From a virus (lineage: Duplodnaviria; Heunggongvirae; Uroviricota; Caudoviricetes): DNA of 64,000 nucleotides. Position numbers and translations under genes: made by a program. The DNA lies in IMG/VR virus record IMGVR_UViG_3300020426_000391. One strand, 5' to 3'. Shown one piece after another: positions 1 through 64,000 of the stretch; the first letter of the stretch is position 1, and each line of letters begins with the position of its first letter. The notes under the pieces were generated by a model, which worked only from the letters and a program-made list of their open reading frames with translations, was not told where the DNA came from and searched no databases.

Positions 1-1455
1 GTTCGAGCAGGTGCTGTTCCACGCGCCGAAGCCGCCTTCGACCCAGCTGTAGGAGCACGCCGAGTAGTCCGCCACTGTCTGCGTGGTCGGGGGCTTGGTC
101 GCGGGGTTGCACTCGCTGTTGGCGACGGTCGTGCCGTCCGAACGGCGGCAGGTGACCGTCTGGTTCTGCGTCTCGCTCGCGGTGCACGAGGGACCCGGAT
201 CCTGGAAGCCGCCCTGGACCCACGCGTAGGAGCAGGACGAATAGTCCTCGACCGTGCGGCTGGTGGCCAGCTTGGGCTTCGTGCAGAAGCTGTCGGCGAC
301 GTCGCGGCCGTCGCTGCTGCGGCAGGTGACGGTGCGGCTCTGGGCCTCGTTCGCCGAGCACGACGCACCCGGATCCCGCCAGGCGCCTGGCACCCAGTCG
401 TAGGTGCACGAATCGTAGACCGGCTTCGTCTCGCTGACGTCGGGCTTGGCACCGTCGTCCTCGAGGCAGCGAGCTGCCATGTCGTTCGTCACGGTTCCGT
501 CGCTGCGCAGGCAGTTCACCGTGCGCGTGCGGTTGGCGGTCGAGGAGCACTGCGAGTCCCATGCCCCCCACGTCTGCGGATCCCAGGAGTAGTCGCAGCC
601 CGAGAAGTCCTCGACACTCTGGGTTGCGGCCGGCCGCTCCGCTGCATCGCACTTGGTGTCCGCCTCGACATTGTCGTCGAGATCGCGGCGGCACCAGACG
701 GCGCGGGTCTGCGTCTCGTTCGCGGTGCAGCTGTCACCCGGATCGGTGAAGTCCTCCTCGGCGTCCCAGCTGTACGAACACGAGGAATAGTCCTCACGCA
801 CGTCGATCGTCGTCGGCTTGCTGCCGGCATCGCACTGTCCGTCGGCGACCTGGACCTTGTCGAGATCGCGTTCGCAGAACACGTCGCGGGTCCACTCCTC
901 GGTGGCTGTGCAGTTCTGGCCCGGGTCGGCGAAGGGATCGCTCGAGTTCCACGAATAGGTGCAGGTCGAGTGATCGACGACCGTCCGTTCCGTCGTGGGC
1001 TTGGTCCCGCTACAGAGGGCGTCGGCGACCTTCACGTCATCGTAGGAACGCCGGCACTCCACGGTGCGCTGCTGCGCCTCTGCGTTCGAACAGGAGGGAC
1101 CCGGATCCTGCCACTGGCCTTGGTACCAGTCGTAGGAGCAGCCCGTGTCGATGAAGGACTGCTTCGAATCCTCGGGCTTGGGCCCCACGTCGCGGCAGTA
1201 GGAATCACCGACCGGGCGCTCGTTCACGACGCACTGGACGTCACGGCGCTCCTCGTAGGGACCGCAGGCGTTCTGCGGCTGGACCACGTTGCCGTTGGTG
1301 TCGTAGATGAGGAAGGGACTGACCCGCCACTCCGCGCCCTTGGTCGGGACGATGAGGGGCCGCCGCATGACGACCTCCTGGGCACTCGCGGCCATCGGTA
1401 TCGTGGCCGTCATCACGGCGCAGGCCGCACTCGCAAGCAGAATGGCACGTCTCAT
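1..1455 (-). CDS. secreted Cys-rich tandem-repeat protein; start codon near 1455, C-terminus runs off the window edge
   Basis: My own minus-strand translation: MRRAILLASAACAVMTATIPMAASAQE signal peptide, then at least 7 repeats of about 60 aa, each with 4 Cys and the core C-x-Y-x-W...W-x-DPG-x-C-[ST]-A-x-E-x-Q-x-R-x-V-x-C-R. The ORF has no stop before position 1, so it is missing from the ORF track. Confidence 0.6.
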   Translation of the reverse strand, partial: MRRAILLASAACAVMTATIPMAASAQEVVMRRPLIVPTKGAEWRVSPFLIYDTNGNVVQPQNACGPYEERRDVQCVVNERPVGDSYCRDVGPKPEDSKQSFIDTGCSYDWYQGQWQDPGPSCSNAEAQQRTVECRRSYDDVKVADALCSGTKPTTERTVVDHSTCTYSWNSSDPFADPGQNCTATEEWTRDVFCERDLDKVQVADGQCDAGSKPTTIDVREDYSSCSYSWDAEEDFTDPGDSCTANETQTRAVWCRRDLDDNVEADTKCDAAERPAATQSVEDFSGCDYSWDPQTWGAWDSQCSSTANRTRTVNCLRSDGTVTNDMAARCLEDDGAKPDVSETKPVYDSCTYDWVPGAWRDPGASCSANEAQSRTVTCRSSDGRDVADSFCTKPKLATSRTVEDYSSCSYAWVQGGFQDPGPSCTASETQNQTVTCRRSDGTTVANSECNPATKPPTTQTVADYSACSYSWVEGGFGAWNSTCSN

Positions 1456-1548
1456 GGTCAGCACTCTCGTCCGAATAGAATCACTCTGTGCAGAGCATAG
1501 AGGATTTTCAGGATGAGAGAAGAGGAAAAAGGCCACACATCCGGTATG

Positions 1549-1956
1549 TTACGCGCAAGAACCGCACCTGATCTGATCAAGGGTCAGATATTTTTCTCGC
1601 GATTCAATGACATCCGCCATACTGCGGTAGCGGAAGCCGAGGGCCTTTTCGGTGCGATCGACACGCTCCACGTCCTGCCTCGCTTTCAGGATGATGTCCC
1701 CTTCGCCGGTATGGATCCAGGAGTCGACATAGCTTTCGCGCCATATGCGCGCATGGAGGCAGGCGAGCGCCAGTGCGTCCTTCGTGTCCCCGTCCATGGC
1801 GGGCTGGTCGTCGGCGAGGCGGAGCAGCAGGGATCGGTGCGCTTCGATGGTCTTCCGGGTCTCTTCCTCTATGGAGGGATCGTCGAACGCTTCCCTGTCA
1901 CTGATCGCGTCCATGACGATCGAGCGGAGGATGCGGCGCGGAGGCATCTTGGCCAT
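1549..1956 (-). CDS. hypothetical protein (about 135 aa)
   Basis: C-terminal part of track ORF 1549..2655. Internal ATG (MAKMPPRRILRS...) sits 3 nt after the stop of the upstream FtsK-like gene; codon usage is coherent. Confidence 0.45.
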   Translation of the reverse strand: MAKMPPRRILRSIVMDAISDREAFDDPSIEEETRKTIEAHRSLLLRLADDQPAMDGDTKDALALACLHARIWRESYVDSWIHTGEGDIILKARQDVERVDRTEKALGFRYRSMADVIESREKYLTLDQIRCGSCA

Positions 1957-1958
1957 GG

Positions 1959-3290
1959 TCAGGCCGCTCCCCGCATCTGAACGACGTTCCCGTCCTCCGC
2001 TTCGTCTGATACCGGGCAGTCTTCGGAGATGGCCTCCGCCATGAGCTGCGCGTCCCACGGATCCATGTAGCTGGACTGTGCGAACTGGGCTCCCCCGGGA
2101 ACTCCGCCGATGATCGCCAGCATGTGCCCGGCTCCCATGAGGTCCTCTGCGCCGGCCTCGTCTATGACGAGGTTGGAATTGACCTTCGAGGACACCCGCA
2201 GGCAGATCTTGTTGGCGATGTTCGCCTTGATCTTGCCGGGGATCGTGATCTTGTCCGGACGCTGCGTCACGAGGATCAGGTGGATGCCGCAGGCCCGGCC
2301 CTTCGCCGCGAGCCTGGCGATCAGGCTTCCGGTGTCCTTGCGGTAGTCGTCGTCGATCATGTAGTCCGCCAACTCGTCGTGGACGACGTAGAGGCGCGGC
2401 ATGACCCGGGCATCGTGCTCCTGGAAGGAGACTTCCTGCACGGGGCCGTCGGTGGCGACCTTCACCTTCACCTGGACCTTGTCGATCTCTCCGCTGCGCA
2501 CGCGCTCGTTGAACGTGTCGAGATCGCGGGCGCGCGCCCCGCCGAGCAGGGCGTATCGACGCTCCATCTCGGCGACAAGGTCGACGTATCGCTGACTGGA
2601 CTCGTCCATCTCGGTGACGATCCCGCCTTCGAGGTGAGGAAGGCTCTCGAGCCACTGGTAGTCGACGCCGGCCTTCGGGTCGATCAGGTGGATGCGCGCC
2701 ATCTCCGGGGAGTTGGTGGCGCAGATGTCCATGATCAGATTGGCCGCGAGCACGCCCTTGCCGCCGCCCGATTCACCGGCGATGAGGGTGTGCGGCCCCG
2801 AGACCGGCTGCCCGCCGAAGGGGTGGGCGAGGTTGAGGTAGAGGAGTTCACCGCTGTCCTCGCGCTCTCCGACCACGAAGCTGGTGTTGTAGTAGGGCGC
2901 GGTTTCCGCGAGCTCACGGCGCTGCCACAACAGACCCGTCTCGGTCACGTGGCGGCTGTCGCGCTTGACCATGACCGCGATGTATCCCTTGCCCGGACGC
3001 ACCGCGAGGATGTCGAGACCCCATGTGGTGTAGAGATAGCTGCGCTTCTTCTCGATGCGATCGACCGAGATGTTGTCGTTGCCCTTGAAGAGCACGAGTG
3101 CGGCATTGGGCGTCAGCCGGATCGACTTGATGTCGGCCTTCATGTGGTAGGAGCGGAGAGCCTCCTTGAGGGTCTCGGCGGTGTCCGAGAGCCACGCGTC
3201 GGCATTCGCCATCTCGCCGCCGTCGTGATAGTCAGCGAGAAGGGCCGGGACGCTCTTGTGGAAGGTTCCGGTCTGCGCGATCTTGGTCAT
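1959..3290 (-). CDS. FtsK/SpoIIIE-family P-loop ATPase (single ATPase domain, no TM segments)
   Basis: Walker A GESGGGKG, Walker B LYVVHDELAD, and HLILVTQRP typical of FtsK/HerA-like translocases. The N-terminal 170 aa are an unknown domain. Confidence 0.7.
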   Translation of the reverse strand: MTKIAQTGTFHKSVPALLADYHDGGEMANADAWLSDTAETLKEALRSYHMKADIKSIRLTPNAALVLFKGNDNISVDRIEKKRSYLYTTWGLDILAVRPGKGYIAVMVKRDSRHVTETGLLWQRRELAETAPYYNTSFVVGEREDSGELLYLNLAHPFGGQPVSGPHTLIAGESGGGKGVLAANLIMDICATNSPEMARIHLIDPKAGVDYQWLESLPHLEGGIVTEMDESSQRYVDLVAEMERRYALLGGARARDLDTFNERVRSGEIDKVQVKVKVATDGPVQEVSFQEHDARVMPRLYVVHDELADYMIDDDYRKDTGSLIARLAAKGRACGIHLILVTQRPDKITIPGKIKANIANKICLRVSSKVNSNLVIDEAGAEDLMGAGHMLAIIGGVPGGAQFAQSSYMDPWDAQLMAEAISEDCPVSDEAEDGNVVQMRGAA

Positions 3291-3377: not shown

Positions 3378-4097
3378 TCAGAGCTTTCCGATGATCTCGG
3401 ATGCGTATTGCGGCGCCGCGAAGGAGGTGCCCGTAGCGAGAGTCGGCTGACCGTCGCGGTCGATGGTGGGCACATCCTCGCCGACGCGCCATACCATGCG
3501 TTCGCGCAGACGGCCGTTCATCCGGGCGCTGAATTCCGAAGGGCGACCTTCCGCGTCCAGCGACGAGACGATGTAGACGTTGGCATCCGCCTCCTTGAGG
3601 ATCATGCCGCCCAGCGCCACGCCGCCCTGATTGCCCGCGGCGAGAACCACGGCGATACCCTTGTTGGCGGCCTCGATGAAGAGGTCACGCGTCTCGCTGT
3701 GCATCCGTCCGCTGAGCGATGCCTGGATCACATCGACGTCCATGTCGATGGCCATGCGCAGCGCGCGTCGGATGGCGCGTTCGTCGACCTCGCAGATGTC
3801 GCCGCGGCAGCGGTTCTTGTCGACGCGCATGCCGATGAAGCGCACGTTCGGTCCGGTCCGCTCGGCGATGATGTTCGCGACCATCGTTCCGTGCGAGGAG
3901 CGCATCTCCTCGCGGGGGTCCTCAGGATCGTAGAGGTCGTAGTTGCCGTCGACGCGGCCCGTGAGCGCACCGACCTCGGTGATGCCCGTATCCAGGACGG
4001 CGACGGTGATCGTGTTCCTGGTCTCCTGCGCGCTGATCTGCGTCGGCATTGCCAGCAGGGCCGCGATCGCGATGATGATCTTCTTCATTTTTTCCAT
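3378..4097 (-). CDS. secreted subtilisin-like serine peptidase (S8 family), minimal 239 aa form
   Basis: Signal peptide MEKMKKIIIAIAALLAMPTQISA. Catalytic triad motifs VAVLDTGI (Asp), HGTMVA (His), GTSFAAP (Ser). Confidence 0.8.
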   Translation of the reverse strand: MEKMKKIIIAIAALLAMPTQISAQETRNTITVAVLDTGITEVGALTGRVDGNYDLYDPEDPREEMRSSHGTMVANIIAERTGPNVRFIGMRVDKNRCRGDICEVDERAIRRALRMAIDMDVDVIQASLSGRMHSETRDLFIEAANKGIAVVLAAGNQGGVALGGMILKEADANVYIVSSLDAEGRPSEFSARMNGRLRERMVWRVGEDVPTIDRDGQPTLATGTSFAAPQYASEIIGKL

Positions 4098-4172
4098 CCT
4101 TGCAGATTATCTGCCCTAATCGCTCCTCGGAGCATTTTCGGAAAGTCGTTTTCCACCGGCGGGTGTGGATGC

Positions 4173-4202
4173 AAAAAAAGGGCCGCCCGTCATGGGCGGC
4201 CC
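4173..4202 (-). terminator. rho-independent terminator downstream of tRNA-Arg (minus strand)
   Basis: GC hairpin gggccgcccgtcatgggcggccc preceded on the plus strand by a7, which is a T-run on the minus strand. Followed by the conserved GCATCC motif. Confidence 0.6.
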
Positions 4203-4213
4203 TTCTCTGCGTC

Positions 4214-4290
4214 TGGTGCGCTCGACAGGATTCGAACCTGTGGCCCCCGGATTAGGAATCCGATGCTCTATCCAGCTGAGCTACGAGCGC
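4214..4290 (-). tRNA. tRNA-Arg (anticodon CCU), copy 1, CCA encoded
   Basis: Reverse complement folds as a cloverleaf: GCGCUCGUAGCUCAGCUGGAUAGAGCAUCGGAUUCCUAAUCCGGGGGCCACAGGUUCGAAUCCUGUCGAGCGCACCA. Anticodon loop is UUCCUAA. Confidence 0.85.
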
Positions 4291-4962: not shown

Positions 4963-5916
4963 TCAGGCTGCCTTCCTTCGGCTGGCCAGGTCGATGACCT
5001 CGAATTCATTGGTCTCGCGCAGGGGGTTCTCAGGCTCGTCCACGTGCCCCTTGGGGTCGATGTGGATGATCACTTCCGTATCGGGGAATTCCTTGGCGAG
5101 GTCCGCCTCGATGTTGTCAATGATGTCGTGTGCCTCGCCGACGGTCACGTCGTCCGGCATGTCGACGTGGAACTGAGCGAAGTGCGTCGAACCGCTGGTG
5201 CGGGTGCGCAGATCGTGCAGGTTGGAAACCTCGTGGTGCTGGGCCACGATCAGGATCAGCTTCTCGCGGCGTTCCTCGTCCCATTCTCGGTCCATGAGAT
5301 GGTCGATGGCCTCGCTCGCGGTGTGCCAGGCTCCGTTGGCGAGCCATGCGGCGATGGCCAAGCCGCAGAGGGGGTCGATCCAGGTCACGTTGGTGAACGC
5401 CTGCGCGCCCATGGCGACGATGACCGACAGGTTGAGCAGGAGATCGCTCTTGTAGTGCATGGCGTCCGCCTTGATGGCGATCGAGCCGGTTCGCATGACG
5501 ACGAAGCTCTGGTATCCGATGAGCGCGAGCGTGAGGGCGATGGCGATTCCCGAGGCGATGATCGCCGGTCCTGTCGCGATATGCCCCGACGTAGGTGATG
5601 CGAGCTCCAGCATTGCCGAATAGGCGATGAGCAGGGCGGCGGCGCCGACGAGTGCCATCTGCGCGGCGGCACCGAGGGCCTCTGCCTTGCCGTGTCCGAA
5701 TCGGTGATCCTCGTCGGCCGGCTTGGCAGCGTAGGCGACGGCGATGAAGACCATCACCGAAGCGGCGAGGTCCAGGCCCGTGTCCGACAGACTGGCGAGC
5801 ATGGCGGTCGAGCCGCTGGCGAAGGCTGCCCATCCCTTGACCGCGAGAAGCGCGAGGGCGGTGCAGACCGAAGCGATGGCGGCGGAGCGGGTCAGTGCCG
5901 AACGTTCCGTTGTCAT
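4963..5916 (-). CDS. cation diffusion facilitator (CDF) family divalent-metal efflux transporter
   Basis: Six hydrophobic helices, HYKSDLLLN and H/D metal-site motifs, and a C-terminal cytoplasmic domain typical of CzcD/FieF. Confidence 0.8.
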   Translation of the reverse strand: MTTERSALTRSAAIASVCTALALLAVKGWAAFASGSTAMLASLSDTGLDLAASVMVFIAVAYAAKPADEDHRFGHGKAEALGAAAQMALVGAAALLIAYSAMLELASPTSGHIATGPAIIASGIAIALTLALIGYQSFVVMRTGSIAIKADAMHYKSDLLLNLSVIVAMGAQAFTNVTWIDPLCGLAIAAWLANGAWHTASEAIDHLMDREWDEERREKLILIVAQHHEVSNLHDLRTRTSGSTHFAQFHVDMPDDVTVGEAHDIIDNIEADLAKEFPDTEVIIHIDPKGHVDEPENPLRETNEFEVIDLASRRKAA

Positions 5917-6243: not shown

Positions 6244-7233
6244 TCAGGCTGCGATCTGTGAGAGGTGGCGGGGGAGGACGATCTCCGAGATCATCTTCTC
6301 GATCTCTTCATCTTCCGGCTTGGGCGGTAGCACGCTGTCGATCCGGTCGAGTTCGTCGACGAGGCCCTCGAGAAGGGGCTGGATCTCCGGATAGGCGAAC
6401 TTGCCGAGCTTGATGGCGAGCAGTTCCTCGGCATCGGGACGCGGAAAGGTGATGCTGCCCGTGAGCATGAGCTCGTGCGCCTGACGCGCGACGCGCACCG
6501 CGTGGCTGACGGCCTTCCAGTCGACCCCGTTGCTATCCTTGGCCTTGCGCGCCCGGTCACCGTAGTTCTTCCAGACGGCGCCGTAGATCTTGGAGGCCTC
6601 CTCCAGGTCGTTGCGCATCGAGACCTTGCGGTCGCAGCACTCGATGTGGAGCATGTCCGGCGTATGTCCCGAGGAGAGGACGATCATGTTCGCCATCTCG
6701 ACGCGCTCGGTGAACGCGCGGAGATCGTCCTCGATCACCTCCAGCCGGGTCTTGGGGCCGTGCTTCTCCTTGGCTTCGGCCAGAAGGACGACGAGCTTCT
6801 CGACCGCTTCCATGCGGCTGCCCTTGACGCCGTATTTCGCGGCCTGCTGCTTGCAGTATCCGACGAAGCCCTTGCAATCCGCATTGAGCAGTGTGCGTGC
6901 CTCGGCGCGCAGTGTCTCCCATTCCGGTGCGGCCTCGACGATGCAGTCGTCGGGAGCGAACAGGATCTCGGTCGCGACGCCGTCGCCCAGCGCCAGCATG
7001 CGGCAGAACTTCTCCACCGAGTAGGACTGGTGGTCCACGGCGTCACCTGTGTTCTTGCCGGCCGCGTTCTTCGCCTTGATCGATTCGTCGAACACGTTCT
7101 CGGGACGCTGGAGGAGGATGCCCCTGCCGCTGGGAAGATGGACACCCTTGTAATCCTCGTCCGAAGATGGCGTGCTCGTGCCGTACAGGTGCGAACCGTG
7201 AACGGTGGTGACGAGCTTTCGGAGCGGCTTCAT
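6244..7233 (-). CDS. Pol-beta superfamily nucleotidyltransferase (about 330 aa) with a C-terminal helical domain
   Basis: hG[GS]-x10-D-x-[DE] motif VHGSHLYGTSTPSSDEDY; further acidic residues at GDAVDH and FAPDDC. Likely start MKPLRKL at residue 32 of track ORF 6244..7326, directly after the upstream stop. Confidence 0.6.
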   Translation of the reverse strand: MKPLRKLVTTVHGSHLYGTSTPSSDEDYKGVHLPSGRGILLQRPENVFDESIKAKNAAGKNTGDAVDHQSYSVEKFCRMLALGDGVATEILFAPDDCIVEAAPEWETLRAEARTLLNADCKGFVGYCKQQAAKYGVKGSRMEAVEKLVVLLAEAKEKHGPKTRLEVIEDDLRAFTERVEMANMIVLSSGHTPDMLHIECCDRKVSMRNDLEEASKIYGAVWKNYGDRARKAKDSNGVDWKAVSHAVRVARQAHELMLTGSITFPRPDAEELLAIKLGKFAYPEIQPLLEGLVDELDRIDSVLPPKPEDEEIEKMISEIVLPRHLSQIAA

Positions 7234-14142: not shown

Positions 14143-14168
14143 AAAAAAGGGGCGGCCTATACCGCCCC
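14143..14168 (-). terminator. rho-independent terminator (minus strand)
   Basis: Hairpin ggggcggcctataccgcccc with a6 upstream on the plus strand. Followed on the minus strand by GCATCCGCATCC. Confidence 0.55.
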
Positions 14169-44446: not shown

Positions 44447-44467
44447 CGTCCTTCTCGGTTTTTTCGA

Positions 44468-44553: not shown

Positions 44554-44599
44554 CCCTTCGATGCGACCTTGTAGGATGAGGTCGCGAATTGTCAAATGC

Positions 44600-46091: not shown

Positions 46092-46100
46092 CTTCTCCTC

Positions 46101-47366: not shown

Positions 47367-47378
47367 GGGATTTTCCTT

Positions 47379-56572: not shown

Positions 56573-57334
56573 TCACCCATGGCGATGACGCTCCATCGCT
56601 AGGTCCTGGAAGTCGCTCCATGTCGCTATCCACCATGGATCCTCGCCGGCGGGTGGCTCCTCGATCGGGACGAGATCACCCCAGACGGTCAGCCTCGTCG
56701 TTCCTTCGTTCGGTCGGTCGACTGCGGAGGAGATGAGCAGATCAGCGATGTCAGCCGGACAGTCCATCACCTCGGCGAGAGATCGTCCGACGATCCCGGT
56801 CCTCGTGGTGTCGGTCATGGGCTGGACATCGAGACTCGAGTAGGTTCCGCGCGCACGGATCTTCAGACCGTTTCCGAACCGCAGCATCTTTACCTCGAGA
56901 TGGAGACCCGTCTTTTCTCCGAGGAGATGTTCCTCCCTTTCTTCGGGTCTCCATGCCGGGCTCCGGGATTCCTTGACGATCTCCTCGGGGCTGTAGGAAC
57001 TCCTGTCGATCGCGAACCCGACGAGCGGGTGGACGCCTGTCGCCCAGAGCGGTGGCGGCCCCTGGAAGCGGTCATGGGCGTGCTGCAGTGCCAAGTGTGC
57101 GCGTGCCAGAACGCCGAGGATGTGCTCGATCCGATCGATCTCCATCGCGCAGTCCTCGTCCAGGTGTTCCGGACCGGGGCTCATCGTGAGAGGCCACAGT
57201 GGAAGACGCGGAGTCTCCACATGGATGTTCACGTGCGCTATGCGGTTCTCGATCGTCGCGAACGACGGGTCGAGACCGACTTCGTCGCAGACCCTTTTTG
57301 CCGTGGCATCGAGGATCGTCTGTATTTCCTTCAT
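56573..57334 (-). CDS. hypothetical protein (about 253 aa)
   Basis: Internal start MKEIQTILDAT, just downstream of a terminator. Confidence 0.45.
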   Translation of the reverse strand: MKEIQTILDATAKRVCDEVGLDPSFATIENRIAHVNIHVETPRLPLWPLTMSPGPEHLDEDCAMEIDRIEHILGVLARAHLALQHAHDRFQGPPPLWATGVHPLVGFAIDRSSYSPEEIVKESRSPAWRPEEREEHLLGEKTGLHLEVKMLRFGNGLKIRARGTYSSLDVQPMTDTTRTGIVGRSLAEVMDCPADIADLLISSAVDRPNEGTTRLTVWGDLVPIEEPPAGEDPWWIATWSDFQDLAMERHRHG

Positions 57335-57358
57335 GCGATGCTCCTCCGGATGCGGACC

Positions 57359-57385
57359 AAAAAAAAGCGAGCCACATCGGCTCGC
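57359..57385 (-). terminator. rho-independent terminator (minus strand)
   Basis: a8 then hairpin gcgagccacatcggctcgc; GCATCC motif on the minus strand. Confidence 0.55.
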
Positions 57386-57405
57386 AGGTCTCGTGTTTTT
57401 CCTTC

Positions 57406-58242
57406 TCAGGACCCGGTGTCGGTATTGATGCCCGCACTGGTCATGACGCGTGCCATCAGTTCGAACGCCTCCTCCATGTCGATGGTGGGGCTGCGGATGC
57501 TGAGTTCCGTGCTTTCCCGTGAGAGGACATGTCCCGTGATGATCGCTTCCACTTCGTCGAATCCCGGAATGGAGATGAGCTGGTGCAGGGGACCGTTCTT
57601 CTTGGATGTGAGGACCGTCTCCGGGATGCGCCTGTTCACCCGTAGTCGGTCGTTGGTCATCCGACCGACATCTCCGAGCCTGAACTCGGGGATCAGGATG
57701 CGCTTCCCCGGAAGTCGGAACTCCTCGTGAGGCCTGTCGGCCCCCCGCCATCTGAGCTTCTCGTCGTTCTTCCGGTGTTTCCAGCCGCGTGGAGTTATCG
57801 TTGCGGCACAGCGTCTGCTCACTGGATACCCGAGATGATCCCTTACGCTCTTCCAGCCGGCACTTCCGTCTTCCGCCCTGTAGGTCGCGATGAGTGCGGC
57901 CGAAGTCGCATGGATGGTGAGATTCCTCCGCTCTTCGATGACGCTGGCTGCTGCCGCCTCGAAGCTGGTCATGGCCAACTCCAAGGCCTTTTCTGCATCA
58001 TTTCCGTCGAACGGGATGTTGCCGAAGTCGAGATCGACGTCGATTCGGGAGAGATCCCTGATGAGCCGAATCGTGAGTCCCTTGGCTATGCGGTCACCGT
58101 GATCCCAGCACTGGGTCCAGATGGTCTCCACGTCGAGTCCCATGTGGGCCGGAGGGAGGCACCGATCGGCGGCCTTTCTCACTGCATCCTCGGCGAAGGA
58201 GGGATCGAAGGGAGGCTCGAACTCCCCCTCCTCCTCAGCCAT
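57406..58242 (-). CDS. hypothetical protein (278 aa)
   Basis: Track ORF. Confidence 0.45.
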   Translation of the reverse strand: MAEEEGEFEPPFDPSFAEDAVRKAADRCLPPAHMGLDVETIWTQCWDHGDRIAKGLTIRLIRDLSRIDVDLDFGNIPFDGNDAEKALELAMTSFEAAAASVIEERRNLTIHATSAALIATYRAEDGSAGWKSVRDHLGYPVSRRCAATITPRGWKHRKNDEKLRWRGADRPHEEFRLPGKRILIPEFRLGDVGRMTNDRLRVNRRIPETVLTSKKNGPLHQLISIPGFDEVEAIITGHVLSRESTELSIRSPTIDMEEAFELMARVMTSAGINTDTGS

Positions 58243-58621
58243 TCGTCGTCAGCCTCTCGATGAGGGCCTTCTTCTTCGCGTCGGTCTGTCCGTTGCGCTT
58301 CCACAGCTTCTTGACGCTTCGCGAGATCTTCATCTCCTGCCAGGTGCTCTTGGAGAGGGATCGCCCGTTCGCCCTCAGGCTGCCGTAGCTTGCGGCCTTG
58401 AAGACGTCGTCTGCCGCCTCGATGGAGCTGTCGCACTCGACGGTGAAGGAATCGGGGTTGTCACGGACTCGTTCGAGATAGATCCTCACCAGTTCGGTAT
58501 CCTCGGGATATCTGCGGCGATGGATGAGGTTCCCGATGGTGAGCGGGAGGACGATCACCGGCAGCACGAAGACCAGGATGATCAGACCGAGGAAGGCGAT
58601 CAGCTCGAGGATGATGTTCAT
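58235..58621 (-). CDS. small membrane-anchored protein
   Basis: MNIILELIAFLGLIILVFVLPVIVLPL TM segment. Confidence 0.45.
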   Translation of the reverse strand: MNIILELIAFLGLIILVFVLPVIVLPLTIGNLIHRRRYPEDTELVRIYLERVRDNPDSFTVECDSSIEAADDVFKAASYGSLRANGRSLSKSTWQEMKISRSVKKLWKRNGQTDAKKKALIERLTTNG

Positions 58622-59493
58622 TTGCGTTTTTCCTTCGTTATGCGGTCGTTTTCCGTCCACCGGTCGATGTCGATGAAGGCGGCCTCCCCGCGTTTATAGG
58701 AGGCGATGTCGATCCAACTCCGGTTCCCCCATGTCAGCGGCTCCTTCAGGATCGTGTGGCCATGGAAGACGTGATCGATGTTCTCCACGATGTCCGAGGG
58801 GCGGGGCCGTGACCTGCTTGCGTGTTCGTGCTTGATGCGTCGGATCTCATCGCGCTCCCACATGGCGTCGCTGGCGATGAAGCCGTCCGGACCCTGCTCC
58901 TGCAGAATGCCGGTGAACGGGTTCCAGTCGAGCCTGCCGTGGATGCGTCGCACCTCACCATGGACGATACCGATCCTGTTGCCGGCGGGAGTTGTGATGG
59001 TGAGCGCTATGGGTGCCCCGCAGACGGCGGCGACGATTCTGCGCCCGCGCCGGTCCATGAGGAGGTTGCCGTCCGCATCCCTGTCGTCATCATCCCCGTC
59101 TCCGTCCTGCGGGAGATGATCGAGGATCCAGCTGCCGCCGTTCCTTATGAGATCGACCGGACTGATGCCTCCGTTCCTGGGACGCACGGCATCCTCGAGC
59201 ATCTGCTCGTGATTGCCCTTGACGAAGACGAGGTTGTCCGTATGCCGATCGATGAACTTGGCGACCTTCGTCGTGTGATCTCCTCGGTCCAGCCAGTCCC
59301 CGAGACCGATCATGCGATCTCCGGCCTCGTGATCGTAGTCGACCTTTTTCATGGCACGCCGGATCGGATCGATGTTCCCGTGGACGTCTCCGAACACGAA
59401 GATCCTCCGTGCGGATCCGTAGTCCAGTTCGATATGGGCGGACTGCTGCTCGAACGTGGCCGCGGCGTATGCGGGCTCGTCCTTGTTGTTCAT
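58618..59493 (-). CDS. metallophosphoesterase (PPP-family Ser/Thr phosphatase, lambda-phosphatase-like)
   Basis: GDVHG, GDWLDRG and GNHE motifs. Confidence 0.8.
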   Translation of the reverse strand: MNNKDEPAYAAATFEQQSAHIELDYGSARRIFVFGDVHGNIDPIRRAMKKVDYDHEAGDRMIGLGDWLDRGDHTTKVAKFIDRHTDNLVFVKGNHEQMLEDAVRPRNGGISPVDLIRNGGSWILDHLPQDGDGDDDDRDADGNLLMDRRGRRIVAAVCGAPIALTITTPAGNRIGIVHGEVRRIHGRLDWNPFTGILQEQGPDGFIASDAMWERDEIRRIKHEHASRSRPRPSDIVENIDHVFHGHTILKEPLTWGNRSWIDIASYKRGEAAFIDIDRWTENDRITKEKRK

Positions 59494-59506
59494 TGCTCTT
59501 TTCCTG

Positions 59507-60361
59507 TCACATGGTCATCCATGAATCATCGAAGCCGTCGGGCGCCTCCGCCATTGCCTCCTCGCTCGGATGCAGGGTCATGCTCAGAACCGTCTCTCCA
59601 TCATGATCGATGATGCGTCGGACACTCTGGATGAGGACATCCTCGTTTCCCTCGATGAACGGCGCATCGACCACCTCACCGATCCTCCTTCCCGGAAGTG
59701 CCAGCGTCACCGCTTCGGGCAGTGGCCGCTTGATCTCCAGTCTCACCGTGCGATCGGTCTGGTTCGAGAACAGCTTCACATCGCGCGACGCGTTCTGGAT
59801 CCCGGCGCACACCGCGTATCCGTCTATGAAATACCATTCGCCGACATCGACGCCCTTCGGCGGGTGAAGCGTATTCATGTATGCCGCTTCACCTTGTATC
59901 GAGAGATCGCATCCCTCCTTTTCGAGCCATCTCTTCGTGACCGAGTGGATCGTATGCGTCCAGGGGTCTCTCTCGCAGGTTCCCCGGTGCGATAGCATGG
60001 CACGATATCGACGCGTCGCACGGATGGACCGCTCGACATAGGATCTGAAGAGATGTTCGCCCTCGAATGCGTCACGTGGCTGCTGGATCTCGCTATGCCT
60101 GTCGGCCCTCCTGCGAAGGAGTTCCTTGAGATTGACGGTCTCCTTGGGTTCGATGTTAGTCGGCGTCGAAAGGACTAGCGTGACGTTCTTGCGGCATTCG
60201 TTGGATGGCGCGCTGCGCACGAGTGTCACGGATGATTCGTTGGTCCTCTCGATTGAGATGTCATGATGCTCGAGTCCGGCATCACGGAATCGCCGGGATA
60301 TCTCGGCGTCGAGATCGGTGGCGAAGTCGCCCGTGCGGCGATCTGCTTCCTGGATCTTCAT
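59507..60361 (-). CDS. hypothetical protein (about 284 aa)
   Basis: Internal start MKIQEADRRTG. Confidence 0.4.
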   Translation of the reverse strand: MKIQEADRRTGDFATDLDAEISRRFRDAGLEHHDISIERTNESSVTLVRSAPSNECRKNVTLVLSTPTNIEPKETVNLKELLRRRADRHSEIQQPRDAFEGEHLFRSYVERSIRATRRYRAMLSHRGTCERDPWTHTIHSVTKRWLEKEGCDLSIQGEAAYMNTLHPPKGVDVGEWYFIDGYAVCAGIQNASRDVKLFSNQTDRTVRLEIKRPLPEAVTLALPGRRIGEVVDAPFIEGNEDVLIQSVRRIIDHDGETVLSMTLHPSEEAMAEAPDGFDDSWMTM

Positions 60362-61458
60362 CGTCTTTTCCACCACTCCTTCCTGGCAGGAACCGCCTCG
60401 TATCTCCGCTCGGGCCAGAGAAGCGCTGTAAGATCCCCGCCGAACACGCATCCGGTGTCGATGGCGATGACGTTGTTCAATTCGCGTGGGGCGTCGTGGA
60501 CCACATGACCATGCACGACGGTGGCCTCACCCGTGTATTCCTCCGCCCAGTCGATCGAGAGCGGGTATCCATCCGCATCGACGCCGCCGCATTCGGATGG
60601 CTTTCCGTAGAGGGCGAAGCTGTGCGCTCCCCCTGTCATGCGGCCTTGATACTCCTCATCGATGCCGGCATGGGCGACGACGAGACGCCCACCGTCCAGA
60701 AGATAGTGTGCTTCTGCAGAGAGCATCCATGCTCCCCAGTCCGCACGCTCCTCATGAGTCATGCCAGCGAACTCGTCGATGGTCGGCTGTTGTCCCGGAC
60801 CGACCTTGACATCCCTGCCGTTCAACCATTTCCCGATCTTGGCGTCGTGGTTGCCGAGGACACGCAGACCTCCTTGCTCCTCCAGGCGGCGAGCCATTCG
60901 CATGACGGCCAGATTCATGGGTCCGCGATCGACCAGGTCCCCGAGCAGGACGGTCCTCCGCCCGCTCTCGTGCTTGCGGATGGAGGTGTGGAACTCGTCA
61001 GGACCGCCTTGCTCCCATCCGCTCTCCATGTAGCCCAGCCTCTCGAGGAGATCCCCGAATTCCAGCGCGCATCCATGGATGTCACCGATCAGGTCGAAAG
61101 GTCCCTCGTCGCTGCGCCTGTCGAGAGCCATCGGCGCGAAGCGACAGGGAAGATCGATCCGTTCGGCGCATGCCTCCCACTTGTCTTCCAGGACATACGG
61201 GACGAAGCCCTTCTTGCGCGCGCGCGATGCTATCGCCTTGACGGTCTTCTCGTATGGCAGTGCCATCGTGACCATGAGACGCGGATTGGAATCCAGGAGT
61301 TCTCCCAGCTTCACCAGCGACTCATCGGGTCTCTGTGCGTCCCATTCGTAGATCACCGGCTCGCCCCAGAGAGACATTGCCTTCAGGACCTCTGCGCGGT
61401 TTCCGTCGGGGAGTGTCGACATGACGACCGATCGTTCACAAGGCGTGGTGGTCGTCAT
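60358..61458 (-). CDS. metallophosphoesterase with an N-terminal extra domain
   Basis: GDIHGC, GDLVDRGP and GNHD motifs. Start taken at MTTTTPCERS to clear the upstream gene. Confidence 0.7.
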   Translation of the reverse strand: MTTTTPCERSVVMSTLPDGNRAEVLKAMSLWGEPVIYEWDAQRPDESLVKLGELLDSNPRLMVTMALPYEKTVKAIASRARKKGFVPYVLEDKWEACAERIDLPCRFAPMALDRRSDEGPFDLIGDIHGCALEFGDLLERLGYMESGWEQGGPDEFHTSIRKHESGRRTVLLGDLVDRGPMNLAVMRMARRLEEQGGLRVLGNHDAKIGKWLNGRDVKVGPGQQPTIDEFAGMTHEERADWGAWMLSAEAHYLLDGGRLVVAHAGIDEEYQGRMTGGAHSFALYGKPSECGGVDADGYPLSIDWAEEYTGEATVVHGHVVHDAPRELNNVIAIDTGCVFGGDLTALLWPERRYEAVPARKEWWKRR

Positions 61459-61471
61459 GGATTTTTCCCTT

Positions 61472-61705
61472 CTAATGCTTGGTCGATACTCCTGTCCCGT
61501 CACGGGAGGAATCATCGAAGAGGTCCTCGACACTCTGGCCGAGGACCCTCGATATTCTCATTGCACTGCGCAGCTTCGGAAGCCCGGCTCCGCGTTCTAT
61601 CGTGTTTATGGCCTGACGCGACAATCCCACCTTGTCACCGAGCGCTCCCTGGGAGAGACCGGCATCCTGCCGCGCCTGGATCATGAGGGTCCGTGTCTCG
61701 CCCAT
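61472..61705 (-). CDS. XRE-family HTH transcriptional regulator
   Basis: LSQGALGDKVGLSRQAINTIERG helix-turn-helix. Confidence 0.8.
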   Translation of the reverse strand: MGETRTLMIQARQDAGLSQGALGDKVGLSRQAINTIERGAGLPKLRSAMRISRVLGQSVEDLFDDSSRDGTGVSTKH

Positions 61706-61712
61706 TTCGGCG

Positions 61713-61964
61713 TCAGGCCGCCTTGGCGACAGGGATCCGAATCTTGGCGAGAATCACGTCCGACAGGTCCGCTACGCCTTCGAGACCGGCGAACTCGCCG
61801 CAGTTGACGATGACGTCATGCTCGTCCTCGACGCCGGCCACCATCGAATACAGACCCAGCGAGTCGATATCCATGTCCTCGAACCTGGTCGCTCCGTCCA
61901 GCGGGCACCGGGTGCCTTGTTCCCGAAGATGCCGATGGATGCTCTCGATTACCGCTTCCTTCAT
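61713..61964 (-). CDS. acyl/peptidyl carrier protein-like (phosphopantetheine attachment site)
   Basis: DSLGLYSMV matches the DSL serine motif of PP-binding domains. Confidence 0.55.
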   Translation of the reverse strand: MKEAVIESIHRHLREQGTRCPLDGATRFEDMDIDSLGLYSMVAGVEDEHDVIVNCGEFAGLEGVADLSDVILAKIRIPVAKAA

Positions 61965-62033
61965 GTTCCCCTCCTGCTTGCCTTGTGGGAGCGATGTTTG
62001 TGCATCAGAAGCAAGTGGTTGTCGAGACTGTTT

Positions 62034-62492
62034 TCAGGATGGATTAAGATTGTCCACCGTTGGGCGGGACCGCATGAGGATGTCGATGGCGCTGTCCGCA
62101 TCGTCTGCCGTGATGCCGACATCCGGATCGATGGCTATCCGGTCGTGATGCGGAAGCGCGAAGTCGTCGTCTATGACGACATGTCGGCTTATGTGATTCG
62201 CGGCCATGTGGGCGTCTATTTCTTGTCCGCGGACGGGAAGGTCCGGATCGAGGTCGTCACCCCTGATGAAGGGGGTCCGGTCCGGACAGGATCGGGTGAT
62301 GAACCCTTGGAGACCGAGATCGGAGAGCAGGTGGAGGACGTCGTCGCTTATGCGCCGTTGTGAGCTCACCACGATCATGCAACCGGTGGCTCTGCATATG
62401 TCGGCGACGTATGACGCCCTGCGCCTGACGTCGGGGTCGTCGTTTCCGTCTCCCGGTAGGATGAGGACGCCGTCTATGTCGAGATAGATCAT
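62034..62492 (-). CDS. HAD-superfamily hydrolase-like protein (about 152 aa)
   Basis: Motif I MIYLDIDGVL (DxDG[TV]). Start at residue 128 of track ORF 62034..62873. Confidence 0.5.
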   Translation of the reverse strand: MIYLDIDGVLILPGDGNDDPDVRRRASYVADICRATGCMIVVSSQRRISDDVLHLLSDLGLQGFITRSCPDRTPFIRGDDLDPDLPVRGQEIDAHMAANHISRHVVIDDDFALPHHDRIAIDPDVGITADDADSAIDILMRSRPTVDNLNPS

Positions 62493-62515
62493 GGTCCTTT
62501 TTCCCTTCTGTTCGT

Positions 62516-62722
62516 TCAGTTGCCGGCGGCGTGCTCCTCGCGATGCTTGCGGATGGAGCGTTCTTCGCCTTCCGACATTATCTCCCCGACCTTGTGCATG
62601 GACTGGTCGATCACCCATCGCGCGGTCTCGCTGAAGAGGGCCAGGACCGCGAAGATCATGAATATGAAGGCGAGCATGATCGCGCAGAGCGACATCATGC
62701 AGACATCCTTGAGTTGTTTCAT
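62516..62722 (-). CDS. small membrane protein (about 68 aa)
   Basis: MKQLKDVCMMSLCAIMLAFIFMIFAVLALF. Confidence 0.4.
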   Translation of the reverse strand: MKQLKDVCMMSLCAIMLAFIFMIFAVLALFSETARWVIDQSMHKVGEIMSEGEERSIRKHREEHAAGN

Positions 62723-62781
62723 GTTCCTGTTCTCCTTGGCTGGATGATAGTAGTCTTGGTCGAGGAGCACCATCCTGAAAA

Positions 62782-63750
62782 TCAGGATACGGGATATCGC
62801 GTGCCGAAGCAGAGACGGGTCTCGTCGTCACCCCGGTTCGTCTCGAGGAAGATCGTAGAGATCTCGTTTCCACGTCCGTCCCTGTTTCTCTCGTTGCGCA
62901 TTATCCCGCGCACCCTGAGTCCCCACCCGTGGAGACGCGTGTCATTCACGACCTGCTCCAGACTCTTTCCGGTGAGACTGAGGACGGTGGATTCGGGAAT
63001 GGCCGGTATATTGAGCTTCAGGACCGACCCCTCGATGCTGTAGCGCGAGTTGAAGCGGCAGTTGCTGGTGATCCTGATACCCTCGTAGCACCTGCTCGAA
63101 CCGATCTCGGTCTTCGCGATGGCGGAGTATGTCTGCTTGTCGTCATATTCCCAGTGGGCAGTTCCTGAGATCATGTCCTGGCCTGGCTCCGAGAGACGCT
63201 CATGTCCCTTTCGGATGAACGTAAGGGCACTTCCTGCGGGCATGCGGCGTTCGGCGAGAGCCGCTGCGATCTCGTCCCTGACCGCGTCGGCGGTGGACAT
63301 GTCCTCGCCCTTGCCCTTCATCCCCTCGAGCGCGAGGACCCATGCCGTGAATCCGTCCGTCTCGATGATCTCCCCGCAGACGCAGCGTCGGAGTTCCTTC
63401 TCGTATCGGGCGGCGATACCGTCATGCCATGGGTGATACCCTTCGTCCACGCCGGGAAGCCTGAAGCACTGGGATATCTCCCATAGGGATTCCCGTGGTC
63501 TCTCGTAGTCGATTCGCAGAGGATGGACGATGTCGTCGTCGAGCTTGAGGACGTTATGACCGTTCTCGATGTCCATGGTGAAGAAGGGGACGACCGCGAG
63601 GATGCCGTTCTGGTGGAGGACCTCGAAGGGATCCTCGATGTCCTCGTGCTTCTCGACGTATCTCTGGAGTGCGCGGGCCTTCCTGTCCAGATCCGTGAGA
63701 ACGTCCATGCGCGCGACTATCTGGTCACGCGTGCCGACTGATGGGCGCAT
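62782..63750 (-). CDS. hypothetical protein (about 322 aa)
   Basis: Internal start MRPSVGTRDQIV. Confidence 0.45.
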   Translation of the reverse strand: MRPSVGTRDQIVARMDVLTDLDRKARALQRYVEKHEDIEDPFEVLHQNGILAVVPFFTMDIENGHNVLKLDDDIVHPLRIDYERPRESLWEISQCFRLPGVDEGYHPWHDGIAARYEKELRRCVCGEIIETDGFTAWVLALEGMKGKGEDMSTADAVRDEIAAALAERRMPAGSALTFIRKGHERLSEPGQDMISGTAHWEYDDKQTYSAIAKTEIGSSRCYEGIRITSNCRFNSRYSIEGSVLKLNIPAIPESTVLSLTGKSLEQVVNDTRLHGWGLRVRGIMRNERNRDGRGNEISTIFLETNRGDDETRLCFGTRYPVS

Positions 63751-63810
63751 GGCTGTCTCCTTTTTGGGATGGAGCGTTGAAGCGGGCGTTGCGACGCCCG
63801 GATGGATCAG

Positions 63811-64000
63811 ACCTCGGCTTTGCCGCGGCCCTGGTAATGTGGGCGAGTGGCTGCGACGGGCTGGTAGATGTCGGGATCGGCCCCGGGCTCCCAGGGGAAG
63901 CGATGCCCGCAATCGGCATAGACGATCTGCAGCCACGTGGGTGGCGTCCCCCATTGACAGCTCAGGACCTGCGTGGCCACGAAGCTGGCGAAGGCGTCGT
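63811..64000 (-). CDS. C-terminal fragment of a protein whose gene continues beyond the window
   Basis: My translation: ...DAFASFVATQVLSCQWGTPPTWLQIVYADCGHRFPWEPGADPDIYQPVAATRPHYQGRGKAEV, stop near 63811. Confidence 0.4.

Follow-up and report, generated by a model that had tools for sequence, protein, structure and literature searches.

The 64,000-nt stretch of DNA analyzed here (the window) raises the question of what kind of replicon carries a long run of co-oriented, mostly unfamiliar genes together with thirteen tRNAs. The original prediction read it as the auxiliary region of a large tRNA-rich phage or prophage and not as a typical chromosome. The span examined covers ~90 kb and ~130 genes, or about a third of the parent element: the window itself plus ~16 kb of its left flank and ~10 kb of its right flank. 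With moderate confidence, the window is assigned as a conserved accessory arm to an uncultured marine element that is cosmopolitan, measures 266 kb or more, and is most probably a tailed jumbo phage whose host is a GC-rich Gram-negative bacterium, Sphingomonadales-type Alphaproteobacteria being favored. An alphaproteobacterial host is likely, and the viral nature of the element is probable, not proven, because no virus-particle gene was found in the 90 kb examined.

Gene Organization and Intergenic Signals

Ninety-eight of the 99 coding sequences in the window lie on the minus strand, in agreement with the ~90 co-oriented genes first reported, and the sole called ORF on the plus strand is small (12605-12868). 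The minus-strand set comprises 83 metagenome gene calls matching intact window ORFs and ~15 calls made for this analysis (43.9-53.7 kb), several of which, around 50.2-51.4 kb, are uncertain. Coding sequence fills 87% of the window, proteins have a median length of 159 aa, and TGA accounts for 85% of stops. Four-base overlaps between genes number 21, comprising 20 of the expected ATGA type and one GTGA. Purine-rich ribosome-binding sites and ATGA start/stop coupling recur across the ~130 genes and ~90 kb, all transcribed in one direction. Approximately 73% of window proteins have no Pfam or PHROG family match, consistent with the claim that most genes are ORFans, and PHROG matches were obtained for only about one-fifth of the proteins tested. 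Also as predicted, the window contains no rRNA (Rfam) and no structural, packaging, or integrase genes, and none of these genes is present in the ~26 kb of flanks.

The possibility that an unsampled bacterium contributed the window as ordinary chromosomal sequence with coincidental features is highly improbable and is effectively refuted by the window architecture. A few housekeeping-like genes, encoding seryl-tRNA synthetase (SerRS) and a CDF transporter, and nothing else, speak for it. Against it stand the strand bias, the short and mostly family-less proteins, thirteen tRNAs without rRNA or ribosomal proteins, and a SerRS whose identity to its cellular and phage counterparts in the collections searched reaches only ~48%. 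The view that this is not a typical chromosome is further strengthened by ORFan-rich contigs of up to 266 kb with one gene direction over at least 90 kb, by identical proteins in many ocean metagenomes, and by a syntenic relative at ~81% nucleotide identity.

Two sequence signals recur between genes. The first is a composite in which an intrinsic-terminator hairpin, GC-rich and ending in a run of six to seven T residues, directly precedes the conserved box GCATCC(A/G)CA, with four intergenic copies in gene orientation on the minus strand (4164..4179, 14134, 17218, and 43430); it is kept in the relative L014 and occurs in L017 as well. The second is the box CCATCCT(G/C)AAA. Both may be element-specific promoter or terminator signals that split the arm into transcription units.

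tRNA Genes and the Translation Cluster

The predicted number of thirteen tRNAs is defensible as 11 canonical and two non-canonical species (Ser and Tyr): ARAGORN reports 12, Rfam reports 11 at gathering score, and the thirteenth, tRNA-Ser(CGA) (39994-40079, plus strand), is detected only at relaxed settings. An array found by ARAGORN and Rfam (39994..40770) lies on the plus strand, antisense to the genes, and consists of the non-canonical Ser(CGA) and Tyr(GTA) followed by Leu(TAA), Leu(CAA), Leu(CAG), Leu(GAG), and Gln(CTG); the four Leu isoacceptors and Gln described originally thus occupy 40278-40770. Its nearest phage matches are mostly Caulobacter and Brevundimonas jumbo phages, in 44 of 73 records. 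The remaining tRNAs are on the minus strand and include Arg(CCT) (4214..4290), Met (22734-22809), and Gly(TCC) (48495-48568), each found by both programs, as well as a group of Arg(TCT), Arg(CCT), and an 86-nt "Cys(GCA)" at 43484..44554 (ARAGORN structures; Rfam tRNA scores of 55-75 bits). The last of these has a long variable arm and U73 in the ARAGORN structure.

Beside this group is a minus-strand translation cluster (44600..47903; Pfam and PHROGs) encoding a DUF7239 protein, a PTH2 peptidyl-tRNA hydrolase, a phrog_15166 protein (1.7e-30), SerRS, and a 174-aa HisRS-like fragment. The SerRS is 46-49% identical to sequences from Brevundimonas jumbo phages and bacteria. The adjoining of odd tRNAs with long variable arms to a SerRS gene is a new observation. 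In the element, AGG/AGA make up 22% of Arg codons, GGA 26% of Gly codons, and CTC 53% of Leu codons, and the encoded tRNAs match this usage in part.

Additional Cargo and Its Possible Roles

Pfam supports nearly all of the functions named in the original prediction. Besides SerRS and PTH2, these are an RNA ligase (29568..30686; RNA_ligase), an ATP-dependent DNA ligase (32088-32990; DNA_ligase_A_M, 32.6 bits against a cutoff of 26.2), two C5 DNA methyltransferases (25495..26919 and 34897..36354; DNA_methylase, with PADLOC MTase_II matches, 2e-18 for the second), a NADAR-domain protein (12927..13466), an HD_4 (RelA/SpoT-type hydrolase domain) protein next to a cREC_REC receiver-like protein (24029..25205), two Metallophos phosphoesterases (58618-59493 and 60358-61458), a CDF cation-efflux transporter (4963..5916; Cation_efflux and ZT_dimer, 50% identical to a Sphingomonas plasmid gene), and a PAS-HWE histidine kinase (52681..53646; PAS_4, HWE_HK, and HisKA_2), all on the minus strand. 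The HNH assignment is weaker, since the 116-aa ORF concerned (31741-32091, minus), coupled to the DNA ligase by an ATGA overlap, scores 20.6 bits against a Pfam cutoff of 21.4.

Further minus-strand genes encode an RlaP-type nucleotidyltransferase like T4 nrdC.11 (6244..7233; Pfam RlaP, phrog_388 3.2e-70), with best matches at 51% identity in Erythrobacter phages XM05 and L02, an SPFH/Band_7 membrane protein (28664..29527; Pfam Band_7), an XRE-type HTH protein (61472-61705; Pfam), and a HAD_SAK_2 protein (62034-62492; Pfam). At the left edge (1..1368, minus) lie the N-terminal 456 codons of a thrombospondin type-1 repeat protein (gene call L002/L017; TSP1_ADAMTS, 1.8e-14), which at 1046 aa extends beyond the window. 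A 449-aa protein with an N-terminal hydrophobic helix (41953..43302, minus; gene call) has no Pfam or PHROG match; its N-terminus is 46% identical to an ORF of the cousin contig L109, and its sequence suggests a pilin- or pseudopilin-like protein.

Two S8 proteases are encoded on the minus strand, a secreted one of 236 aa (3378..4088; Peptidase_S8) and one of 814 aa (20143..22587; Peptidase_S8 2.7e-36, phrog_3677 5.7e-28), which are paralogous at 28% identity (BLASTP). The larger is the "autotransporter" of the original prediction and is better described as lipoprotein-type: Pfam places Peptidase_S8 at residues 157-428 only, a Pro/Thr linker follows, and the C-terminal 380 aa carry no Pfam domain and end in an aromatic residue (...WNLRF). 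This large C-terminal domain is possibly an outer-membrane beta-domain, and the C-terminal half matches Sphingomonadales S8 proteins over its full length. The codon usage of the gene is unlike that of the rest of the block, with 0% AGR codons.

Known defense families are touched only by the methylases, a 181-aa DUF262/GmrSD N-terminal-domain protein (19221..19766, minus; GmrSD_N, PADLOC NsnA 1.4e-14), an FtsK/SpoIIIE-type P-loop ATPase of 443 aa (1959..3290, minus; FtsK_SpoIIIE, phrog_1358 2.8e-53, and a faint AAA_10 match), and, weakly, the NADAR protein (PADLOC). A phosphorothioation-sensing (Ssp/Dnd) system was considered and rejected: an SspH C-terminal-region match in the ATPase (5.6e-140, at 2 kb), an SspE/NsnA N-terminus-like DUF262 protein (19 kb), and a DndC/SspD-like PAPS reductase right of the window (phrog_424 2e-30, at ~66 kb) are scattered, do not form an operon, and lack the other components.

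Judged from its domains, this cargo would help the element express its own genes inside the host. Several of the thirteen tRNAs would fit heavily used codons (AGG/AGA, GGA, and CTC), SerRS may be paired with the element's own tRNA-Ser, and PTH2 could recycle stalled peptidyl-tRNA. RNA ligase and the RlaP nucleotidyltransferase may repair tRNAs cut by host anticodon nucleases, the DNA ligase could mend element DNA, and the two C5 methylases could mask it from restriction. NADAR, the HD_4 hydrolase, the lambda-type phosphoesterases, the kinase, and envelope proteins (S8 protease, CDF, SPFH, and OMP) are candidates for remodeling host signaling and the cell surface. The "host-takeover and anti-defense" label attached to this repertoire is likewise a domain-level interpretation.

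A Lineage-Restricted Paralog Family

Also new here is a lineage-restricted paralog family with the signature LPE..GR.L..VVD.P, present in at least 17 copies, or about one gene in eight. The four tandem paralog pairs noticed earlier were recovered by BLASTP (14157/14865, 16381/17244, 33045/33545, and 48656/49192). Family pairs on the minus strand include 14157-14612 with 14865-15344, which are separated by a small ORF and match the family HMM at 1e-18 to 1e-20 (an AF2 model for the region 14157..15344 has a pLDDT of 73); 33045..34018 (30% identity, E 1e-18; orthologues P0001, P0002, and P0039); and 48656..49725. Other minus-strand members recognized by the HMM occur in a run of small ORFs at 36575..38620 (36575-37054, 37598-38080, and 38117-38620, also supported by orthologues) and in a block at 56573..63750 (56573-57334, 57406-58242, 59507-60361, and 62782-63750). 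Distant members sit in two phage-like contigs, L108, which carries RNA ligase, PTH2, and PNKP, and L109, which carries a DUF1064 resolvase, NAD-ligase, sigma factor, DpdA, cell-wall hydrolase, and ThyA.

The Parent Element and Its Flanks

Proteins identical to those of the window are encoded on contigs of 265,950 bp (ENA ERZ908552 k127_115918), 227,742 bp (ERZ27286404 k119_622756), 169,395 bp, and 104,605 bp from different samples, and contigs of 104-266 kb with the same gene content recur across many marine metagenome samples. The two longest are colinear, indicating a replicon of more than 200 kb. In the relative at ~81% DNA identity every ORF is present in the same order, with 57-98% amino acid identity; the DUF262 protein is 98% identical to its copy in the diverged relative.

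The prophage alternative in the original prediction was not supported: no integrase, attachment-site context, or host-type flank was found in the ~90 kb examined, and contig coordinates suggest a separate replicon. A related possibility, a very large island or prophage remnant integrated in a bacterial chromosome, with the long contigs entering host DNA beyond the span examined, is considered improbable. Three contigs (ROBB19 scaffold_3, a MAG contig, and ICM0295MP0780_1181776) do extend past the end of the 265,950-bp contig, one contig belongs to a MAG, and cargo ~12 kb left of the window is strain variable (EF-hand vs. MarR). However, from -16 kb to +74 kb there is no integrase, recombinase, tRNA-attachment context, host-type flank, or shift to conserved housekeeping genes, and two probes found no relative among 185,579 GTDB representative genomes. 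By coordinate arithmetic, two assemblies stop at one coordinate that others cross, which fits a circular or permuted replicon of ~266 kb.

Phage or Non-Viral Element

Pfam and, for ~70 proteins, PHROGs detected none of the genes for capsid, portal, terminase, tail, baseplate, DNA polymerase, or primase within the ~90 kb; the search for virion genes in the left (~16 kb) and right (~10 kb) flanks was negative. None of eight IMG/VR probes (seven protein or profile, one DNA motif) retrieved a relative; one protein probe was derived from the cousin contig L109 and not from the window lineage. INPHARED gave single-gene matches only, no sequenced phage sharing more than one gene with the window. The idea that the window is auxiliary DNA of a large, tRNA-rich phage is the best reading, short of demonstration. 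Favoring a novel jumbo phage are the gene architecture, the cargo for RNA repair and translation, the best single-gene matches, which are to Erythrobacter and Brevundimonas phages, and the phage-like setting of distant relatives of the signature family. Observations that run counter to a phage include the low PHROG rate, the binning of one copy with a bacterial MAG that carries the label "uncultured Salinicola sp.", and cellular, envelope, and regulatory cargo (S8 lipoprotein, OMP barrel, CDF, SPFH, TPM, EF-hand, MarR, and HWE kinase). In the right flank, L009:579-1442 is an ORF with a signal peptide, an SxHxxGxAxD...HxH motif, and no Pfam or PHROG match; it is putatively M15-peptidase-like.

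The lack of virion genes in the ~90 kb, the negative IMG/VR probes, the binning with a MAG, and the cellular-type cargo, together with the FtsK/SpoIIIE-type translocase-like ATPase and the pilin-like protein, would suit a giant non-viral extrachromosomal element (plasmid-like or Borg-like) of a marine proteobacterium, with its own translation toolkit, envelope and regulatory cargo, and no virion. Multi-copy families and one-directional blocks, which are also Borg features, point the same way, and large putative plasmids with analogous translation gene sets have been documented (Al-Shayeb et al., 2020, PMC7162821). This explanation is nevertheless rather unlikely. No Rep, ParA/B, relaxase, T4SS, toxin-antitoxin, integrase, or transposase domain is on record from Pfam among the ~130 genes, and the 72,556 plasmids of PLSDB match nothing beyond single cargo genes, with no backbone similarity and only a tRNA matched by megablast. 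The strand bias, the 159-aa median, and the set of RNA-repair, RlaP, DprA-like (phrog_768, 2.8e-52), and PAPS-reductase genes are more typical of large phages, and RlaP has its best homologues in phages. More doubtful still is the specific proposal that marine proteobacteria harbor a new kind of giant cosmopolitan non-viral element, extrachromosomal and equivalent to Borg-like elements in a bacterial setting. Were it true, the element would keep its own tRNA, aminoacyl-tRNA synthetase (aaRS), and RNA-repair toolkit together with an expanding lineage-specific family of at least 17 copies, and its secreted proteases, outer-membrane proteins, and pilin-like proteins would reshape the host envelope.

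Comparison with Known Systems

Borgs are archaeal (Methanoperedens), low-GC, linear elements with long terminal repeats and one-directional gene blocks. The marine element resembles them in its large size, in long one-directional blocks, in a protein set that is mostly unknown, and in expanded multi-copy families, which are described for Borgs in PMC12660748. It is set apart from Borgs by a class-II tRNA-Tyr of bacterial type, by Shine-Dalgarno-like sites, and by envelope proteins of the Gram-negative kind.

Huge phages carry tRNAs and aaRS, and the element, favored here as a jumbo phage, shares with them a size above 200 kb, many tRNAs, an aaRS, co-oriented and mostly ORFan blocks, and recovery from cellular-fraction metagenomes (PMC7162821). 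It departs from them in that no virion or replication module was seen in ~90 kb, phage protein sharing is limited to single genes, and envelope and signaling proteins are unusually abundant among the cargo. With alphaproteobacterial jumbo siphophages (Caulobacter phiCbK-like phages, Bertelyvirus, and Brevundimonas vB_BpoS, 280-357 kb) it has in common high GC, similar genome size, tRNA-Leu at 75-80% identity, and SerRS at 46-47%, but SerRS and the tRNAs are the sole matches and the ~130 proteins show no multi-gene synteny. Whole-genome tblastn of the element's known proteins against Erythrobacter phage XM05 recovers only RlaP, and the signature family is absent; nevertheless, XM05 and vB_EliS-L02 (about 150 kb, 61% GC) encode the best RlaP homologue (51%), and XM05 additionally carries RNA-repair genes and a short ORF resembling HisRS. 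T4-type RNA-repair modules (RNA ligase, Pnk, and the nrdC.11/RlaP nucleotidyltransferase) are matched in that the element has both an RNA ligase and an RlaP-type nucleotidyltransferase, with homologues in T4-like phages, and the distant cousin contig L108 adds PNKP and PTH2. In the window, however, the ligase and the nucleotidyltransferase are separated by 23 kb and do not share an operon, and a polynucleotide kinase-phosphatase is missing.

Gene Architecture and Intergenic Signals

The window has a GC content of 62%, varying little along its length, and its genes run almost entirely one way, with 98 protein genes on the minus strand and one small called ORF (12605-12868) on the plus strand. 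The 83 intact ORFs are metagenome gene calls mapped across from identical contigs; about 15 further genes were called in this analysis for 43.9-53.7 kb, a stretch without recorded calls, from GC3 and a purine-rich ribosome-binding motif (AAGGAAAA / AGGGAAAAA), a few of those at ~50.2-51.4 kb being uncertain. Coding density is 87%, the median protein has 159 aa, TGA is the stop codon in 85% of genes, and neighboring genes are coupled by 20 ATGA overlaps and one GTGA overlap. Pfam and PHROGs gave no match for ~73% of the window proteins. The original prediction described strand bias, overlapping genes, tRNAs without rRNA, tandem paralog pairs and a set of named functions, and as a whole this observation is borne out; all four paralog pairs were recovered by BLASTP. 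Cumulative GC skew climbs to ~40-42 kb and then drops with gene orientation unchanged (window 38000-44000), the turnover coinciding with an antisense tRNA array. An origin-like repeat structure at this point (~40 kb) was considered and rejected, the repeats there being tRNA paralogs only, and no iteron-like repeats were found.

Two intergenic signals recur. The first, a GC-rich hairpin with T6-7 followed directly by GCATCC(A/G)CA, is present at 4164, 14134, 17218 and 43430 and once in the left flank (16357 of contig L017), occurs in gene orientation only, and is kept in a relative ~81% identical in DNA. The second is a CCATCCT(G/C)AAA box with about eight copies in gene orientation (1506, 5996, 12561, 13904, 43339, 52235, 56022 and 62032) and two more on the opposite strand. 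Together they are interpreted as putative terminator and promoter modules, which would split the arm into separate transcription units. A search of IMG/VR with the terminator-box DNA motif gave 83 matches, a chance level, none related to the element.

tRNAs and Translation Genes

ARAGORN called 12 tRNAs and Rfam 11 at gathering score, and Rfam detected no rRNA in the window. The 13 tRNAs counted originally are reached when Ser(CGA) at 39994-40079 (+), detected under relaxed settings and by a sub-threshold Rfam match, is added to the ARAGORN set. Seven tRNAs (Ser, Tyr, four Leu and Gln) form a plus-strand array antisense to all neighboring genes. The tRNA set partly follows the codon usage of the element: AGG and AGA together make up 22% of Arg codons and are served by three tRNA-Arg genes, while GGA (26% of Gly codons), CTC (53% of Leu codons) and TCG (28% of Ser codons) are served by tRNA-Gly(UCC), tRNA-Leu(GAG) and tRNA-Ser(CGA); the codons of the TTA and TTG tRNAs are hardly used. 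Ser(CGA) and the adjacent Tyr(GTA) (40152-40241, +) are non-canonical class-II tRNAs with poorly paired D-arms, for which the top Rfam model is tRNA-Sec at sub-threshold scores (25 and 30 bits); Ser(CGA) has G73 and an encoded CCA.

A 'Cys(GCA)' tRNA at 44469-44554 (-) is 86 nt long, and its variable arm is long and class-II-like, with a 4-bp stem; the D-stem has 3 bp, the discriminator base is U73, and the SerRS gene lies ~1.5 kb away. SerRS recognizes its tRNA mainly by the long variable arm, and for this reason SerRS may load the 86-nt tRNA with Ser; the molecule could just as well be an unusual but normal tRNA-Cys. SerRS and PTH2, both named in advance, are confirmed by domain. A HisRS-like fragment of 174 aa (47379-47903, -) is also present and spans only part of the catalytic core; it has no detectable similarity by tblastn to XM05_48, a short ORF of Erythrobacter phage XM05 annotated as histidyl-tRNA synthetase.

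Other Cargo

Domain matches likewise support the expected RNA ligase, DNA ligase, two C5 methylases, NADAR, HD_4, CDF, PAS-HWE kinase and two Metallophos proteins, and add cREC_REC, Band_7, GmrSD_N, RlaP, two S8 peptidases, FtsK/SpoIIIE, HTH_3 and HAD_SAK_2. The proposed HNH protein has a borderline Pfam match only. The supposed autotransporter is an S8 lipoprotein, and its C-terminal half is without a Pfam match. The S8 protease gene at 20143-22587 (-) differs in composition from the whole block, with AGR codons at 0% (vs. 22%), GGA at 9% (vs. 26%) and a higher GC content. Zero AGR and raised GC match the expectation for recent host-gene acquisition, and the gene looks recently acquired from a Sphingomonadales-like host. 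It also contains a Pro/Thr-coding tandem repeat (22292-22460). A 1046-aa protein at 1-1368 (-), continuing in left-flank contig L002 (11923-15063), carries a thrombospondin type-1 repeat (Pfam, 1.8e-14), a domain characteristic of animals that bacteria and phages seldom carry.

PADLOC tied few genes to defense: the methylases, a DUF262 protein, an FtsK-like ATPase and, weakly, NADAR. The ATPase (1959-3290) matches the C-terminal region of SspH (5.6e-140), the DUF262 protein (19221-19766) resembles the N-terminus of SspE/NsnA, and a PAPS reductase in the right flank (contig L009, 6752-7798) is DndC/SspD-like. These homologs of phosphorothioation defense are scattered rather than co-located and form no system; they might be decoys, anti-defense proteins or remnants.

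Replicon Form and Relatives

By exact-protein look-ups the window was placed on four large metagenome contigs: ENA k119_622756 (227,742 bp; contig coordinate = window + 44), Tara Oceans k127_115918 (265,950 bp), ROBB19-1 scaffold_3 (169,395 bp), and CALFQK010000168.1 (104,605 bp) of the NCBI MAG GCA_937921195.1, labeled 'uncultured Salinicola sp.'. Window proteins are also found on many shorter contigs from other marine samples. The MAG contig begins at about window coordinate 40,639, within the plus-strand tRNA array. Coordinate arithmetic gives two assemblies a shared end point at window coordinate ~227,700 and would carry three other contigs across the 265,950-bp contig's far end, a pattern that fits a circular or circularly permuted replicon of ~266 kb as the putative form of the element.

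The ~81% identical relative (contigs L014-L016) is perfectly syntenic over 20 kb and keeps every ORF, even those of 53-76 aa, at 57-98% amino acid identity, and a third clade, more diverged, came out of an exhaustive profile search. The window 'ORFans' are therefore real genes, conserved within a lineage. In 90 kb a single variable spot was seen, a strain-variable cassette ~12 kb left of the window, comprising either two EF-hand proteins on the opposite strand (L017, 16406-16992) or MarR and small ORFs (contig L018, 13102-15350).

The lineage carries a signature module, a C-terminal segment of ~60-80 aa with the motif (L/I)PE(T/S)(V/I)...G(R/K).L.(D/E)(V/I)(V/I)D.P. At least 17 proteins in the 90 kb contain it, with 12 in the window (14157-63750) and the rest in the flanks (L002 and L009). 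Against a local profile built by iteration each member scores E < 1e-6 (best of tenfold shuffled controls, 0.06). The family is lineage-restricted, has no Pfam model or assignable fold, and counts only 37 representatives among 1.84 billion proteins. A word-indexed search returned only orthologs of known window genes; an exhaustive one added diverged orthologs and, on short contigs of other origin than the element's, a wider family. Two distant members lie on co-oriented, phage-like contigs, one (L108) encoding RNA ligase, PTH2 and PNKP, and the other (L109; GC 65%, module present twice) a DUF1064 resolvase, NAD-ligase, sigma factor, DpdA, cell-wall hydrolase and ThyA; no virion genes were found in the readable parts of either.

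Nature of the Element

The readable span reaches ~16 kb beyond the left edge of the window and ~10 kb beyond its right edge, giving ~130 genes in all; a JGI scan for flanking sequence yielded contigs of 1.9-7 kb only. The left flank holds the rest of the 1046-aa protein, a TPM-domain protein, an OMP beta-barrel, a DprA-like protein (phrog_768, 2.8e-52) and the variable EF-hand/MarR cassette, and the right flank DUF4262, Rce1-like, PAPS-reductase and His_Phos_1 genes, together with one for a secreted protein read from its sequence as M15-peptidase-like. None of the ~130 genes in these ~90 kb, about a third of the element, encodes a capsid, portal, terminase, tail or polymerase protein, and none encodes Rep/Par, a relaxase, T4SS, integrase or transposase. 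INPHARED gave no megablast match and single-gene matches only by tblastn (51% identity for RlaP in Erythrobacter phages, 46-47% for SerRS in Brevundimonas jumbo phages and ~31% for the FtsK-like protein). Phage XM05 (GC 61%) was rejected as a relative, sharing only RlaP in whole-genome comparison. No relative was found in IMG/VR with seven probes (six of proteins or profiles, one of a DNA motif), or among GTDB representative genomes with two probes, and the lineage is not described in the Moraphages paper (PMC12619734) or a marine jumbo-phage survey (PMC9123017).

The large tRNA-rich phage proposed originally is the best-supported reading and somewhat probable, given the architecture, the RNA-repair and translation cargo, the phage-biased homologs, the lack of a plasmid or integrative backbone, and the phage-like contigs on which distant relatives of the signature family lie. 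It is unproven because no hallmark gene is seen in a third of the element, because the lineage is in none of the virus catalogs searched, and because comparable translation genes can occur on large plasmid-like elements (PMC7162821). That last point would suit a giant plasmid-like or Borg-like element, which we consider rather unlikely; the span contains no plasmid backbone, and PLSDB plasmids returned nothing but a 72-nt tRNA match and cargo-gene matches. A very large chromosomal island is improbable, the span containing no integrative backbone.

Host

The 90-nt tRNA-Tyr, with its long variable arm, is bacterial in type, and a Gram-negative envelope is implied by the S8 lipoprotein, the OMP barrel and the signal peptides. 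Among the cargo, the CDF transporter shares 50% identity with a Sphingomonas homolog, the S8 protease has full-length matches in Sphingosinicella, Erythrobacter and Sphingomonas, the HWE kinase has its match in Agrobacterium, RlaP is nearest to Erythrobacter phages, and the phage matches of the tRNA array are mostly Caulobacter and Brevundimonas jumbo phages. From these homologies an alphaproteobacterium of Sphingomonadales type is favored as the likely host, an assignment that depends on database content. The MAG label 'Salinicola' (Gammaproteobacteria) is doubtful as a host, the cargo homologies being to Sphingomonadales and other Alphaproteobacteria, a pattern that PLSDB composition may bias; the element may be a mis-binned mobile element in that MAG.

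Significance and Proposed Roles

If a phage, the element represents an uncatalogued jumbo-phage lineage with three or more diverged clades that is widespread in ocean metagenomes, among them Tara and several further marine sample sets, and would be a concrete case, one copy being MAG-binned, of large-phage diversity missed by standard virus catalogs; if not, it would be a giant extrachromosomal element of bacteria belonging to a new class. The arm offers testable material in a rare family of at least 17 paralogs, a SerRS with its own tRNA-Ser, a long-variable-arm tRNA with a Cys anticodon, and element-specific putative terminator and promoter boxes. SerRS with its tRNA-Ser, PTH2, RNA ligase and RlaP would support continued translation and tRNA repair, DNA ligase and the methylases may mend and mask the element's DNA, and NADAR, HD_4, the phosphoesterases and the kinase may interfere with host signaling, roles suggested by domain content and by analogy with T4-type RNA repair and the translation repertoires of huge phages (PMC7162821).
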